64,000 nt of DNA from a virus (lineage: Duplodnaviria > Caudoviricetes), in IMG/VR virus record IMGVR_UViG_3300026549_000895, positions 32,001 to 96,000 of that record; one strand, 5' to 3'. The notes beneath the pieces were generated by a model. That model did no database searches, had not been told where the DNA came from, and worked only from the letters and a program-made list of their open reading frames with translations. The position numbers and the translations under genes are program-made. This document shows, one piece after another, positions 48,578-54,849 of the stretch (its first letter is position 1; every line of letters starts with the position of its first letter).

Positions 48578-51500
48578 CTATATACTGTAAACATTGACTG
48601 TGAATACTTTTAATTTCTTATTAGATTCATCAGCCTTCTTCGTTAATTTTAAATCGGTTTGAACTGTTGTCGTCGATGATGTTCGTATACGTTTTGAATC
48701 ACAGTCAACACCGAATACTGAGGAATCATATGAATCAACGTCAATCGAAGTCTTTTTAACACCCATATCATCTTCAATAACAGAACGAATAGTTTGTTCT
48801 TTTGGTACAACTGTCAAAGCAACTCGCGTCAATTCAGATGGCGCTTTGAATATGATTTTGTAATCATCTGGTAAACCTATGTCATTTACTATATAAGAAG
48901 AACCGTAAGTGTTGAAATCATCGTCAGAAGGTAATTCATAAGCAAATGACTCCCATTCTGATGATGTGTCATTGAATCGATAGAAGTTGGTCATATCCAT
49001 ATTTGAGCATAGAAATTTTGCTTTGATGCCAACAACTGTAATTCTGACCAAACTTCGTCCAGTCGGAAGATTATTTCCTCCAGCAGTGAGGGTTGCATCT
49101 GTTAAACAATCGCTTGGATCGGTTAATAAGTAACCAGATGGTTTGAAAGAATTTGGTAATAATACATAACCACTTCCTCCGCATCCACCTTCATCGTCAT
49201 CACTACTGCCGTCAGGCCATGTTCCAGAGCCTCCGAACCAACCACCGCCTCCGGCACCACCATATCCATCACTGTCAAATTTACCATTTCCACCTACTCC
49301 AAAAGCTCCACATATATCAACAACTGAAGAGTCATAAGGTGATTCTGTTTGTGTACCAGGTCCGGGTGTTGTTCCATAAGTCTCCCATGATGCCCATCCT
49401 CCTACTTCACCACCACCGTGTCCGCCGAGTGAGCTTTCACGACCTTCGGAGCCGGCACCACCGGCAACAATGATTCGAGCATACAATGAGTCGGTATCAA
49501 TACGAATATCAGTTCCGCCTCCACCAGCAGTTGATGCTTGACTGGTAGAACCAGGACGTCCACCGCCATTGTATGACATTGTGGGATTATATTTCATGCA
49601 CCATGTCTGATCAATCCAGTTAGCAAACAAACCAGAACCTCCAACGTTGATATATGCTTCTCGAGGTATGGTTGTTTCAAATGTGCCAGTAGTATATCCG
49701 CCTCGTGAATTGTTTGGATATAAATAGTAATAATTACGGAATCCACCATCGCCACCATAACATTCAAAATTATAAATGCCAGGCATTAAACGTATATGTT
49801 CAGATCTACCAACGCATGGAAATGTTATAATGTCATCTTTCATTAAAGAATCGATTTCTTTATATATGACAATCTTAGGCGTGTTAGAAGTTCCAACTCC
49901 CAAGAATGTATCAGTTAATTCTAAATCAGACGGTGGTTCATATGAACCGGGGGGATATGGTCTGTAGGAAGTCGATGTTAAAACATATCCACTTCCTCCA
50001 CCACCATTTGTTGATGTATATGAGGAATCAGTTATCGATGCTGAATAGCCACCAAACCATCCACCTCCACCTCCGCCAGCACCTTCATAGTTCAATGTAT
50101 ATCCACCCGTACGCTTTATAGGTGTTTCGCCGGTTCCGAATGAATAACCATCTGTCTGAGTTGGATATTTGTAATCATTGTTACCCTGGTAAATTGGTGA
50201 ACCGCCAACTTCACCACCACCGAATCCAATCGCTGATGTGAAATAGTTTTGTTCAGTAATCCACATTTGTCCACCACCACCACCAGCAACAATGATTCGA
50301 GAAGCCAATGATTCATCAACTTTGGTTTTCAAAGTTATCGTAGGATCAACGAGAACATTTCCCGCTGTTAAATGACAATTTCCAAATGTAAGTTTTTCAT
50401 TGTACTTTACAGCTTGAGCAAATGTGCCTGACAATACTTCGTATATGCCCACTTCATCAGCCGTATATTCTATTCTGACAGAACCAACATCCGAAGGTGT
50501 AATATCAGAATCATTTGGAAATTTTAAACACAAACGAATACTTCTACAATGTCCGTATAATGTTGAAGGTTGACCAGATGACAACCATCCGTCATCGGAA
50601 ATATAACCGCCATTCAATGCATCGTATTCCATTACATTATAATCCAAATCATTTCCGTTTGAATCAGTTGCGAATATACGGAAAGAGCGTGGACGATTCT
50701 TGTAGTCCCATTCAAGATATCCGGGTGTTCTGACACGTGTTGAAGAATTCTCATTACCCGAACCTGTAATAGTACCTTGTTCCCAAATCAATTCAGATGT
50801 AAATTCAGATGTCACATCAGCAGCTTTTGTTTTAGCAGGAATATAACATTTCTTAAGAACACCTTGTTCATATACACACATTTTGTAGAAGGTTAAAGAA
50901 GCATATGAACCATCGTCGAAGTCAGATCCATCGTTTGTATCAAATATCAAACATGGCCAATTACATGGTGAATATGTAGCAGTGGTCGTTATTTCACCCA
51001 ACTTCGTATCATTGGTATCGTACCATTCAGCTTTCGATGTGTTTATTTTATATAACACTCGTTGTCCATATGGAGCTTGAATTAAAGAAGGCCCTTCTTG
51101 TTCTACAGTACCTACCATCAAACATCCACGGTCTCTTCCTGCGAATCTATAGAAAAAAGAAAATGCTTCATGAAATGCGGAATTACGAGCTCCGAATAAA
51201 GATCCATAATTTCGTGGGTCAGAACCAGTCAAGTTACAATCGAATTCAACATAAGTATCTTTCTTGTGAAAGTAGTCTGTATGAATAGCGCCACCGTTTT
51301 GAGCATCTGTTATACAATAATCCAAGTATTCATATTTCGTTGTATCTAATTCAAGTTCATACTCTATTATTTCGGGAGGTTTTAAACTACACCTGATGTC
51401 TGTAGCTCCACCTCCACCGGCACCGGTGTTATATCCATCAACGGGTTCTCCACCATCTCCGCCACCATTCCATCCACCTCGACCAATAGTGACATGATCA

Positions 51501-51748
51501 TCATTTCCATCTTCGCCGACACCACCGACGAATGCATATAAAGTTTTTGGTTCTGATATATTCAATACTCCATATGATGTTCCACCATACAAAGGTTCTG
51601 CATAGTTTGCAGTCTTTCCACCTGGTGCTCCATCACATTCTAACAAGTATTCTCCAGCTGGTAAAGTAAACTCTTCATAGTTTCCGGTATATTCGAATTC
51701 TCTATAAGGTGCCCATATCTTATCATGATAACCTAATAAGTTTCTCAT
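48578..51748 (-). CDS. glycine-rich (ALK/LTK-type Gly-rich domain) tail/adhesin protein with inserted lectin-like modules
   Basis: Two domains with G.Y..EC.G..GG, GGGGxTDIR, RIIVAGG, GGGGWFGG, GGSGYV. Confidence 0.7.
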   Translation of the reverse strand: MRNLLGYHDKIWAPYREFEYTGNYEEFTLPAGEYLLECDGAPGGKTANYAEPLYGGTSYGVLNISEPKTLYAFVGGVGEDGNDDHVTIGRGGWNGGGDGGEPVDGYNTGAGGGGATDIRCSLKPPEIIEYELELDTTKYEYLDYCITDAQNGGAIHTDYFHKKDTYVEFDCNLTGSDPRNYGSLFGARNSAFHEAFSFFYRFAGRDRGCLMVGTVEQEGPSLIQAPYGQRVLYKINTSKAEWYDTNDTKLGEITTTATYSPCNWPCLIFDTNDGSDFDDGSYASLTFYKMCVYEQGVLKKCYIPAKTKAADVTSEFTSELIWEQGTITGSGNENSSTRVRTPGYLEWDYKNRPRSFRIFATDSNGNDLDYNVMEYDALNGGYISDDGWLSSGQPSTLYGHCRSIRLCLKFPNDSDITPSDVGSVRIEYTADEVGIYEVLSGTFAQAVKYNEKLTFGNCHLTAGNVLVDPTITLKTKVDESLASRIIVAGGGGGQMWITEQNYFTSAIGFGGGEVGGSPIYQGNNDYKYPTQTDGYSFGTGETPIKRTGGYTLNYEGAGGGGGGWFGGYSASITDSSYTSTNGGGGSGYVLTSTSYRPYPPGSYEPPSDLELTDTFLGVGTSNTPKIVIYKEIDSLMKDDIITFPCVGRSEHIRLMPGIYNFECYGGDGGFRNYYYLYPNNSRGGYTTGTFETTIPREAYINVGGSGLFANWIDQTWCMKYNPTMSYNGGGRPGSTSQASTAGGGGTDIRIDTDSLYARIIVAGGAGSEGRESSLGGHGGGEVGGWASWETYGTTPGPGTQTESPYDSSVVDICGAFGVGGNGKFDSDGYGGAGGGGWFGGSGTWPDGSSDDDEGGCGGSGYVLLPNSFKPSGYLLTDPSDCLTDATLTAGGNNLPTGRSLVRITVVGIKAKFLCSNMDMTNFYRFNDTSSEWESFAYELPSDDDFNTYGSSYIVNDIGLPDDYKIIFKAPSELTRVALTVVPKEQTIRSVIEDDMGVKKTSIDVDSYDSSVFGVDCDSKRIRTSSTTTVQTDLKLTKKADESNKKLKVFTVNVYSI

Positions 51749-52183: not shown

Positions 52184-52256
52184 CTCACTTTCTGTGAAAT
52201 TTAACCAATCGGCTTACGATTCCGTCACTCTCAGGAAAAAAGAAGAAAAAAAGAAA

Positions 52257-52275
52257 CGCCTCCCTTTCGGGAGGC
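52257..52275 (-). terminator. terminator of the tRNA/ncRNA operon
   Basis: GCCTCCC-GAAA-GGGAGGC followed by long U-run on minus strand. Confidence 0.8.
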
Positions 52276-52293
52276 ATAACTTTAATCATTCAT

Positions 52294-52368
52294 TGGTGAC
52301 CCGTACGAGAATCGAACTCATGTTTCCGGGATGAAAACCCGGCGTCTTAACCGCTTGACTAACGGGCC
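52294..52368 (-). tRNA. tRNA-Glu(UUC)
   Basis: GGCCCGT acceptor, CCGGG-TTTTCAT-CCCGG anticodon arm, GTTCGATTC T-loop, encoded CCA. Confidence 0.93.
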
Positions 52369-52371
52369 ATA

Positions 52372-53307
52372 TAGACGCCGTGATAGTTTCACGACGTCCA
52401 TACCGCTTCGGTTATTGATTGCTGGGCTAACCAAACCCAGCTGGTCAACATCATAAGTCATTACCTCATGATGTTGATATATTTGATTGATGATATTCTT
52501 TCATGACGTAAGCATGAGGGTTGTGGGACAAGTCCTAACCTTTCATACTCCTCTTACTTGAACTACACATCGCATTTGTGGTGACGCCAACGACCGGGTC
52601 ACATCTGCATCAATCGCATATACTAATCTTACAGAGGAATTACGAAACAACCAACGTTTCCACCAACCTTGCTAACCAAAGTGACGAACTTTGGCTTTCA
52701 TGGTATGCGAAGCTTATAAACCAATACCAAGGACATTTGTTACGACATATAGATTTAACGTACATGCACGGAGCATCATATGCCGTGTAAGATTATAAGT
52801 TTGAACTATGATTCGCTACTAACGATGTGGCCACCATCTGGACCAAGATCATCGCCGTCATAATGGGTTAGTTAATTCCCACACACCGTCACGACCATTA
52901 ACCTATAATCTCCGAAAGCTATATATCATTTCAAGACAGTCGGAAGTCCTCAGGTGTGTTCAAACTTTGAGAAGCATCCATCGGTTCCGGATTCCTTTTT
53001 ATAACGCACATGGTGAGCGTACCCTGTGATGCTTCTCTATGGGTCGGGGTATCATGTAGGTATGACAAGGTTTCCCTATATGCCAATTATGGACACAATA
53101 CCCCACTGGTCCGGAGTTTCTTATCTGGGTCATTGCAAAGAAGCTTTTCATTATACTAATCAATTGACATACGATTCAATCAACGCCGTATAATGATTCC
53201 AGATCTCCGGTGGTATGTATCAATAATATGTAATTCCTATATACTACGTTGAGGATCTTGGGATCAACGGACCCGTGCTGGAACCGGTCTTCTTATTATC
53301 GATACAT
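52372..53307 (-). ncRNA. large structured ncRNA candidate (GOLLD/ROOL-like context, family unassigned)
   Basis: About 930 nt, no credible CDS, GC-enriched, many long-range perfect helices, sandwiched between two tRNAs. Confidence 0.55.
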
Positions 53308-53383
53308 TGGCGTCTGATGTAGGACTCGAACCTACGACAACGTGATTAACAGTCACGGGCTCTACCTGCTGAGCTAATCAGAC
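53308..53383 (-). tRNA. tRNA-Asn(GUU)
   Basis: GTCTGAT/ATCAGAC acceptor, CGTGA-CTGTTAA-TCACG anticodon arm, GTTCGAGTC, CCA. Confidence 0.93.
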
Positions 53384-53541
53384 ACATATAATTTTCCATT
53401 ACTTCAATCCCTGACCACAGGTGCAATTATGGTCTTCCAGAAACATTCATTCAGAGCTATAGTGAATGACATTCAGTGTTTTCCTATTTAAACTATTAGG
53501 ATTGAATAATGGATGACGTTTGTTTCGTAAGCAACAAACGT

Positions 53542-53628
53542 TGGTACCTGAGGTGGGACTCGAACCCACAGTTGTCTTTCGACACTTGATTTTGAGTCAA
53601 GCTCCTAAACCAATTCGGATACTCAGGC
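53542..53628 (-). tRNA. tRNA-Leu(CAA)
   Basis: GCCTGAG acceptor, CTTGA-CTCAAAA-TCAAG anticodon arm, long variable arm TGTC-GAAA-GACA, CCA. Confidence 0.93.
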
Positions 53629-53644
53629 ATGTAAAAATATATTT

Positions 53645-54110
53645 CAACCCGCGTGTGCCAGGGGGATGGTCTTATTATTGCCATCTTTTAAACTGTCTGT
53701 AGAATGACTGTTAAACACACGCGGGAGAAATAACAAGGGCTCCACGGGGCGTAGGGATAATGATAACTACATTTGGCTGTTCTTTTCCTTTCTGAATTGA
53801 TGGATTTAAACTTCCAAAGTGTTCATTGCCCCGTGGTGCCGCATTTCATTTTGTGGGTTGCAATAACCCACGGGAGATGTCGGAGATATAGCTCCGTACA
53901 CACCCATCTTCTTATAATGGAGCCTCTGGCAGTAGCACTCAATGCTGTCTGCTGTATGACTGCATCATGCTTTACACCTGTTCTTCCAGTAGGCATCCTA
54001 CCTCACCCTCCCATTTCTGGAGTGTTGCGTGCACACAACTCGGTGAGTATATTATCACACCATCAGAAAGGACTTTGCAAAGAATTTTCTTTCATCTTTC
54101 TTTTGGTGTA
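53645..54110 (-). ncRNA. structured non-coding region upstream of tRNA-Leu
   Basis: CCCGCGTGTG/CACACGCGGG, CCACGGGGC/GCCCCGTGG, GTGGGTT/AACCCAC, CGGAG/CTCCG, ACACCA/TGGTGT helices. Confidence 0.45.
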
Positions 54111-54138
54111 ATAAGCAGTTGTTAGTTGATAATATTAT

Positions 54139-54849
54139 TTATACTTTTTTATATTTTTGAATACTCAGATTCGGAATATACAAACCATCTTCAGTTTGTT
54201 CCAATCTATCAAGATAGCCTTCACCTCTTAAAAGTTCAAAAGCAGTCTTGAAACAATACTGACCATTGTCAACTCTTGACAATGATAATTGATCGCCAAA
54301 ATGAGTTTTATCTTTGGTGTACATTCCAGCTGGCGAATAATACACTTCGTAGAAGTGATTGTTGATTTTATAAATATAATCGCATGATGGCTTATCATCG
54401 AATGCTTCCTTTATAAAGGAATACTTGTAGCCTTGTAAACCATTAGTATCTTGCCCATTGATGATAACATGAACAATGGAATCAGTGATTATCATTTGAC
54501 CGTAGTAAACGGTTGTGACTTTCACGTTTTCCATCAGGAATTCATCAAACGGAATTTTGAATGTTTCAAAATCAAGCATCTTTGCAATTCGAGATTGTGG
54601 ATCATATTCCGCATCCTTATCAATAATATGCTCGGATGCTACTGATTTGCATCTCATGCATTTGTTTTCCCAATCAGGGAATAATCTTAAATTGGTAAGG
54701 TGTAATTGTGAAGACCCAATCTTCAAGTCAATATTGACTGTGTAACTGAGTTCTTCCAGATAATCTTCAATTACCTTTTCGGAATTTTTCTCAATATGTT
54801 CCTCACGGAAATATTGCTTCAATTCTTCATTTAAATAGAATCTGTACAT
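54139..54849 (-). CDS. hypothetical protein
   Basis: GAAAGGTGA SD; 236 aa. Confidence 0.7.
   Translation of the reverse strand: MYRFYLNEELKQYFREEHIEKNSEKVIEDYLEELSYTVNIDLKIGSSQLHLTNLRLFPDWENKCMRCKSVASEHIIDKDAEYDPQSRIAKMLDFETFKIPFDEFLMENVKVTTVYYGQMIITDSIVHVIINGQDTNGLQGYKYSFIKEAFDDKPSCDYIYKINNHFYEVYYSPAGMYTKDKTHFGDQLSLSRVDNGQYCFKTAFELLRGEGYLDRLEQTEDGLYIPNLSIQKYKKV

Follow-up and report, generated by a model that had tools for sequence, protein, structure and literature searches.

GOLLD and ROOL are, to our knowledge, the only large ornate RNA classes that have been described from the tRNA islands of phages. Cryo-EM has revealed that both form cages, and their function is still unknown. Stable RNAs of another kind also derive from such regions, as illustrated by RNAC and RNAD, which lie within the tRNA cluster of phage T4 and are processed by RNase P. 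ROOL RNAs average 581 nt, adopt an ornate multi-helix fold, occur in phages and prophages, and are typically located near tRNA genes, with no known function (PMC5737381; bioRxiv 10.1101/2024.12.08.627333). Both GOLLD and ROOL adjoin phage tRNA islands, and tRNAs are sometimes found inside a linker of GOLLD (bioRxiv 10.1101/2024.12.08.627333; PMC5737381), which is variable in its 5′ part and conserved in its 3′ part (bioRxiv 10.1101/2024.12.08.627333). The T4 RNAs are small and stable, and their function is likewise unknown (PMC9697503).

The window analysed here is a 64,000-nt stretch (bases 32001-96000) taken from an IMG/VR virus record of 239.8 kb, which is estimated to be 89% complete and derives from an uncultured jumbo phage. 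It carries an RNA operon in which a 939-nt spacer separates tRNA-Asn from tRNA-Glu. A preliminary description, made from the sequence alone, had proposed that this spacer encodes a single structured RNA of ~930 nt. The overall explanation that we consider probable is a narrower one, wherein a 563-nt core RNA of the GOLLD and ROOL kind lies amid tRNA-like cassettes and would be released by tRNA-type processing. For the descriptions below, the spacer is divided into three cassettes (D1 to D3), four core domains (D4 to D7), and the hairpins that follow the core.

The core resembles ROOL in its length (563 nt versus ~580 nt), in being phage-borne, in its location beside tRNAs, and in its predicted multi-helix build, whereas it differs from ROOL in lacking a covariance-model match, in being a series of four closed domains for which no pseudoknot is supported, and in being known from a single phage clade. 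Its likeness to GOLLD is one of analogy only: the variable units D1 to D3 and the variable interiors of D4 and D5 precede the near-invariant domains D6 and D7, and the flanking units are interchangeable with tRNAs. However, the sequence and fold of the core are unrelated to those of GOLLD, and the tRNA-like units of the present locus look like separate products rather than parts of the RNA. D1, D2, D3 and the minihelices resemble RNAC and RNAD of T4 and the stable RNAs of T5 in being non-tRNA RNAs of tRNA regions, but the core is several times larger than those RNAs, and no sequence relation is expected.

In searches with Rfam 15, only tRNAs reach the gathering score, and the sub-threshold hits at E≤10 are scattered chance matches. 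The whole phage record gave no match to GOLLD (RF02032; threshold 150 bits) at E≤10. ROOL (RF03087; threshold 99.1 bits) also has no match at E≤10, either in the region or in the whole 239.8-kb record, the second of these results to be read with the knowledge that the control genomes gave no match either and thus provided no positive control. Two options had been raised earlier, namely a diverged member of a known family or a new class, and with no detectable membership in GOLLD or ROOL it is the second that fits these results. On the basis of size, architecture and genomic context, we read the core as a new class of the GOLLD and ROOL kind.

The RNA operon and its spacer

ARAGORN and Rfam identify three tRNAs at the locus, all of which are encoded on the minus strand, as are the operon features described below. 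The operon begins with tRNA-Leu(CAA) (53542-53628), which has an encoded CCA, and continues with tRNA-Asn(GUU) (53308-53383), where CCA is not encoded and CAA comes next. The spacer then leads to tRNA-Glu(UUC) (52294-52368), the last gene, whose CCA is encoded, and the operon closes with an intrinsic terminator (52246-52277) formed by a 9-bp G+C-rich stem and a T run. Given that all three tRNAs are located on the minus strand, the spacer RNA reads from 53307 to 52369, in the order tRNA-Asn, spacer, tRNA-Glu.

The spacer contains neither an ORF of more than 70 aa nor a conserved ORF, which upholds the earlier view that no credible gene is present. Its G+C content (0.41-0.44) was correctly described as higher than that of its flanks (~0.36-0.41 for downstream genes and 0.30-0.37 for upstream genes), although the excess is modest. 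Proteins encoded near the locus mostly lack a family match, and the neighbours carry no informative family except the glycine-rich domain ALK_LTK_GRD, which resides in a 1056-aa protein. Searches of the phage record for TROVE, RtcB and PolyA_pol domains found none. Since the phage encodes no TROVE/Ro protein, RtcB or CCA-adding enzyme, a Y-RNA-like system is not indicated.

Nine pairs of helix arms had been quoted for the spacer, and all nine are present as exact reverse complements, the second position given for each pair being the end of the arm rather than its start. On the minus strand, the whole 939-nt spacer is predicted to fold with an energy of -300.9 kcal/mol, compared with -248.6 kcal/mol for dinucleotide shuffles (z = -7.1), and the plus strand yields z = -3.8. 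The individual units are uneven in this regard, with z-scores of -2.7 (D1), -5.6 (D2), -3.5 (D3), -3.1 (D4), -1.7 (D5), -3.5 (D6) and -1.7 (D7), and a score of -7.5 for the hairpins that follow the core. For the 563-nt core as a unit, the value is -2.1, whereas three protein-coding controls score -0.8, -2.2 and -4.8. The expectation that the RNA would fold better than shuffled sequences holds well for the whole spacer and weakly for the core. Folding energy alone is insufficient for the core, whose value falls within the span of the coding controls, and it is the comparative evidence that carries it.

The four-domain core

Homologous operons were collected by two approaches. The 140-aa gene located downstream of the operon has 42 relatives (99-27% identity), whose contigs were fetched and searched for operon homologues, and an exact-pattern scan of metagenomes with conserved D7 motifs uncovered four loci. 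The comparisons below are based on 11 distinct operons, namely that of the window and 10 from metagenomes (L013, L015, L017, L019, L020, L025, L029, L032, L033 and L034). Record names such as STEW19 and TONG22 hint that the rumen or gut may be their origin.

The core (52477-53039) consists of four abutting closed domains, D4 (53037-52969), D5 (52966-52797), D6 (52794-52625) and D7 (52623-52477), which are joined by linkers of 1-2 nt. It is present in all 11 operons with 80-95% nucleotide identity and is the sole stretch that they have in common, although it is not more conserved than the upstream protein gene (89-93% nucleotide identity). D4 to D7 invariably occur together, in a fixed order and with their short linkers retained, whereas D1, D2, D3 and the tRNAs come and go. 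In D4 and D5, variable interiors are enclosed by closing stems that are kept, and the sequences of D6 and D7 hardly vary. The consensus fold, which was predicted with RNAalifold from the 11-sequence alignment and comprises 133-134 pairs, places multi-helix junctions in D5, D6 and D7.

Across that alignment, 98.1% of the 1446 cells that represent paired positions hold standard pairs. Both partners change in 25 of 133 pairs, compared with 8.4±2.0 in column shuffles, and none of 500 shuffles reaches 25; these counts derive from 11 related sequences of one phage clade that share 80-95% identity. When the partners are slid by 1-3 columns, only 2-7 pairs change on both sides, a comparison that favours the fold to some extent because the fold was predicted from the same alignment that was used for counting. 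An alignment of eight sequences gives the same picture. Thus, covariation among homologs, which the preliminary description had proposed as a check, is evident for the core. Owing to the near-invariance of D6 and D7, covariation neither tests nor contradicts most helices of these two domains.

Several changes to individual stems provide evidence that is independent of these counts. The D4 interior of L019 has been replaced, and the stem is longer and of different sequence between unchanged GAGAA/UUCUC ends. The D5 domains of L013 and L015 have a wholly different interior, and there the closing stem AAGUUUGAAC/GUUCAAACUU is changed to AAGUUCAAGC/GUUUGAACUU. The closing stem of D7 is altered in L034 from GAUUGAUG/CAUCAAUC to GACUGAUG/CAUCAGUC, wherein a U-A pair becomes a C-G pair. 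Moreover, three variants have gained a C and, nine bases away, a G, and the two insertions together lengthen GAAAC/GUUUC to GAAACC/GGUUUC, and the same hairpin reads GAACC/GGUUC in L034. The pairing also indicates the strand, since 168 of the 1446 cells are G-U pairs that would break in an RNA copied from the opposite strand, where pairing would drop to 86.4%. The functional strand is thus the one that encodes the tRNAs. Considering these results together, we judge it very probable that the core is a structured RNA under selection, and the portion of the original proposal that envisaged a structured non-coding RNA in a phage tRNA operon is well founded.

One could propose instead that no large RNA exists and that the operon yields a string of small RNAs of 60-170 nt, with D4, D5, D6 and D7 each excised separately, as in the tRNA regions of T4 and T5. 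Each domain does have its own strong closing stem and is separated from its neighbours by only 1-2 nt, and the small stable RNAs RNAC and RNAD of T4 serve as a precedent (PMC9697503). However, D4 to D7 lack the NCCA tails and tRNA-like borders that would be expected of such products, and among the 11 operons they are never separated or reordered and their short linkers are kept. A weak hint of contact between domains comes from an invariant hairpin loop of D6 (UUCGCAU, 52695-52701) and an invariant loop of D7 (AAUGCGA, 52570-52576), which hold the only perfect 6-nt complementarity among the invariant unpaired runs of the core (P ~0.05 by loop shuffling). We therefore regard separate small RNAs as an unlikely source of the conservation seen in D4 to D7.

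The two loops are a candidate kissing contact, which could form within one molecule or between molecules. They exhibit no covariation because both are invariant. A scan of all alignment columns against all others for covariation returned 751 pairs, which are mostly spurious given that only 11 related sequences are available, and no pseudoknot is supported in the core.

The core has so far been found in one clade of uncultured large phages, to which it appears to be confined according to the sequences searched. Exact-pattern scans with the conserved D7 motifs gave no match in IMG/VR or in GTDB genome contigs, a blastn comparison with 50,697 phage records, using the spacer as query, gave none, and no relatives were found in IMG/VR through the upstream 236-aa gene. 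Among more distant relatives, the core is absent from the syntenic site in L022, L023, L024 and the 258-kb phage G001. The last of these encodes a neighbour protein that is 42% identical, but there are no tRNAs and no spacer at the syntenic site, and no similarity is detected by blastn or nhmmer. A covariance model of D6 likewise recovered only the copy in the window and none in G001, L011, L012 or L022-L024.

This distribution bears on the proposal that the core acts only in cis, as a spacer or as a scaffold for processing or stability that sets the yields or timing of the tRNAs and has no function of its own. The core is indeed always located within a tRNA operon and is bordered by processing signals. 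Nevertheless, a stretch of 563 nt in which helices are maintained and loops are near-invariant far exceeds what a spacer would need, and the four distant relatives just named do without the core at the syntenic site. For these reasons, we consider a purely cis-acting role to be quite improbable.

tRNA-like units and predicted release of the core

Three cassettes precede the core. D1 (53211-53307), which lies directly 3′ of tRNA-Asn, is a 93-nt unit with a 14-bp closing stem that is followed by ACCA. D2 (53107-53210) is a 100-nt unit with a CCGGAG/CUCCGG closing stem, again followed by ACCA, and D3 (53040-53106) has a GGGGUAU/AUACCCC closing stem and is followed by GACCCA. D1 and D2 are optional components of the operon, and all three cassettes are nearly invariant wherever they are present. 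In the case of D1, this near-invariance extends over eight loci found by pattern; another locus, L034, was seen by BLAST to have a copy, and the unit is absent from L013 and L019. L025 and L029 lack D2 altogether, with the deletion running exactly from one ACCA to the next, and the copy in L033 has an internal deletion. The D2 copy of L032 has a compensatory change from AUCUGG/CCAGAU to AUCGGG/CCCGAU.

Directly 3′ of the core in the window is a hairpin (52441-52476) that consists of a 12-bp stem, a 7-nt loop and ACCA, and thus has the geometry of a minihelix. Two further hairpins (52441-52421 and 52402-52370) lead into tRNA-Glu, and the segment that contains them (52369-52440) is conserved only in L019. 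No tRNA is called for D1, D2, D3 or the post-core hairpin by ARAGORN or by the Rfam tRNA model (RF00005), even at E≤10.

The arrangement of these units differs among the operons. The window has the order tRNA-Leu, a 158-nt spacer, tRNA-Asn, D1, D2, D3, core, hairpin with ACCA, two hairpins and tRNA-Glu. L020 is the same as far as the core and then has tRNA-Met and tRNA-Glu; L033 follows the L020 order with its deleted D2, and L025, which lacks D2, also has tRNA-Met after the core. The L029 operon reads tRNA-Leu, D1, D3, core, tRNA-Pro and tRNA-Glu, and that of L017 reads tRNA-Leu, D1, D2, D3, core and a minihelix. In L013, D1 and D2 have given way to a tRNA-like unit that has ACCA and a canonical T arm, whereas the D3 slot is occupied in L015 and L019 by a degenerate tRNA-Arg-like gene ending in ACCA and in L034 by a different unit that ends in GGCACCA. 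In this comparison, D1, D2 and D3 behave like independent cassettes, similar to tRNA genes in an array, rather than like parts of one RNA.

Two of the replacement units deserve brief description. The tRNA-like unit in the D1-D2 slot of L013 (L013:3936-4034) includes an acceptor arm and a D arm, together with ACCA and a canonical T arm (GGTTCGAGTCC). A hairpin of ~24 nt stands in place of the 7-nt anticodon loop, and ARAGORN does not call the unit. The degenerate gene in the D3 slot of L015 (3002-3080) and L019 (4040-4121) resembles tRNA-Arg(GCG) and has the non-canonical T-loop UUAAAAU; ARAGORN calls the L015 copy and not the L019 copy.

The slot that follows the core is occupied by tRNA-Met in L020, L025 and L033, by tRNA-Pro in L029 and L034, and by minihelices in L015, L017 and L013. 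The L015 minihelix is a remnant of tRNA-Met that is reduced to the 5′ acceptor strand, the T arm, the 3′ acceptor strand and GCCA, and those of L017 and L013 are remnants of tRNA-Pro that comprise the acceptor strands, the T arm and NCCA. The T-loop and NCCA are retained in these minihelices. The tRNA at the edge of the core has thus been reduced twice independently, once from tRNA-Met and once from tRNA-Pro, to acceptor and T arms with NCCA. The stack of acceptor and T arms is the minimal substrate of RNase P. Given that two tRNAs lost their decoding parts but kept this stack, the processing signal that it provides is apparently still needed. The hairpin of the window has the corresponding features, namely a stack of ~12 bp, a 7-nt loop and a 3′ RCCA, and it may be recognized in the same manner. 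In these respects the post-core hairpin and the tRNA-Met and tRNA-Pro derivatives without D and anticodon arms are similar to the minihelix substrates of RNase P and CCA-adding enzymes, but the present examples are natural, genome-encoded and located at the border of a large RNA, and they are putative substrates.

The borders of the core are sharply defined. At its 5′ side, the upstream 30 nt end in CCA in all 11 operons, and the first helix (GAGAA...) begins 2-4 nt later. At its 3′ side, the core ends in UAUAU, and in each of the 11 operons the next base is position 1 of tRNA-Met, tRNA-Pro, a minihelix or the 12-bp hairpin with ACCA. Because the core is flanked in every case by CCA and by a tRNA or minihelix, its release by tRNA-processing enzymes is the best inference, and we consider tRNA-style excision of the core to be probable. 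The earlier suggestion that tRNA processing on both sides frees the RNA thus still describes the most plausible route, now with the borders of the core in place of those of the spacer. In such a route, the operon would be transcribed as a single precursor that ends at the intrinsic terminator. RNase P of the host would cut where every tRNA and tRNA-like unit starts and thereby create the 3′ end of the core, and maturation of the 3′ end of the upstream unit would create its 5′ end. The predicted products are a stable RNA of ~565 nt and small RNAs with NCCA tails that correspond to D1, D2, D3 and the minihelix.

These arrangements also address the original proposal that the entire 939-nt spacer, from D1 to the last hairpin, forms one ornate RNA with long-range contacts. 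The full spacer folds well, as noted above, and its domains are contiguous between two tRNAs. However, D1, D2 and D3 are singly missing or replaced by tRNA-like units in relatives that carry the core, the post-core hairpins are exchanged for tRNA-Met, tRNA-Pro or minihelices, and each of these units ends in NCCA in the manner of a separate tRNA-type product. The long-range contact that had been suggested, a pseudoknot between CGGTTCC and GGAACCG, does not persist in all relatives: the arm in D1 is absent from L013 and L019, and L025 and L019 have a shortened or replaced D4 interior from which the full heptamer GGAACCG is gone. Because its partners in D1 and D4 are not co-conserved, this pairing cannot be a conserved feature. 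We therefore view a single RNA that spans the spacer as very unlikely, and replace it with the constant 563-nt core and its separable neighbours.

A still more sceptical reading holds that the spacer is a non-functional relic of decayed tRNA genes and junk, wherein the helices are leftovers or due to chance. Decaying tRNAs are clearly present at the locus, including the minihelices, the degenerate tRNA-Arg-like genes and the units without anticodons, and the z-score of the core is ordinary. But the compensatory changes, the paired insertions and the stems that are kept over replaced interiors require selection on pairing, and the core has no similarity to tRNAs, such that a relic is highly improbable. 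The weakest alternative, a protein-coding gene on either strand, can be dismissed as scarcely credible, since the only recurrent ORF, an antisense frame of 57-72 aa over D6 that is open in 10 of the 11 variants, is shifted by single-base indels so that its peptides are unrelated after the first ~25 residues and end at different stops, the spacer is devoid of longer frames, and a Pfam or PHROG signal is not expected from such frames.

Possible roles and neighbouring sequences

Our working guess is that the core works in trans as a structural or scaffold RNA and is made with the phage tRNAs during infection, and it is speculation on our part that it might act on tRNAs or on the translation machinery. 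A more elaborate scenario would place the core in an independent class of giant ornate phage RNAs, the third after GOLLD and ROOL. In this scenario the RNA would be excised in tRNA style, would assemble through the UUCGCAU and AAUGCGA loops into a higher-order particle or scaffold, and would act alongside the tRNA mimics with NCCA tails that are released with it, perhaps to capture or decoy host factors acting on tRNA ends. We consider this combination of features unlikely.

If the favoured reading of a tRNA-released core RNA is true, an unrelated third class occupies the niche of GOLLD and ROOL, with a simple build of serial domains and precise boundaries that are defined by tRNAs. The natural exchanges among tRNAs, degenerate tRNAs and minihelices would then make it possible to compare what such RNAs require of neighbouring tRNAs, and researchers would have a well-defined construct of ~563 nt for structural and processing experiments. 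The locus also captures tRNA genes in the course of decay to exactly an acceptor/T-arm minihelix.

Some additional sequences near the core may also be of interest. Between the 236-aa gene and tRNA-Leu is a leader of 510 nt (53629-54138) with z-scores of -7.3 (minus strand) and -6.0 (plus strand), far better than shuffles, which is conserved over its full length (93-95%) in L020, L025 and L033. The corresponding site in L013, L017 and L029 is instead a gap of ~750-860 nt that holds a gene for 113-119 aa. We considered that the leader might be a decayed copy of that gene, and rejected this possibility on comparison. The leader may be a further structured RNA that heads the operon. The adjacent 236-aa gene (54139-54849), which served as a coding control, itself has an unusually good fold on both strands (z = -4.8 and -5.5) and contains terminator-like hairpins. 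Within the operon, the 158-nt spacer between tRNA-Leu and tRNA-Asn (53384-53541) starts with a hairpin and then CAUCCA. It shows 93-99% conservation in L013, L019, L020 and L025, and its z-score is -4.1.

A different gap is found in phage G001 (L011:8148-9605), where 1.46 kb of ORF-poor sequence extends from tRNA-Leu(UAA) to tRNA-Met with z-scores of -2.5 to -4.2. It has no homology to the core RNA and may be an analogous, unrelated RNA locus.

In L032 and L035, which are represented by the reverse strand, the core and tRNA-Glu are set apart by ~0.5 kb of extra sequence that apparently holds an ORF. In both, tRNA-Glu is truncated at its 3′ end, and the sequence found after tRNA-Glu in the window begins only after ~1.2 kb of extra DNA. 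The tRNA operon is a hot spot for insertion. Directly downstream of the operon, the 1056-aa protein (48578-51748, minus strand) contains the ALK/LTK glycine-rich domain (PF12810, E = 7e-74). Among relatives, the block that encodes this protein has only ~70% nucleotide identity, compared with ~90% for the block upstream of the operon, and the RNA operon is thus situated at a boundary between conserved and variable DNA.
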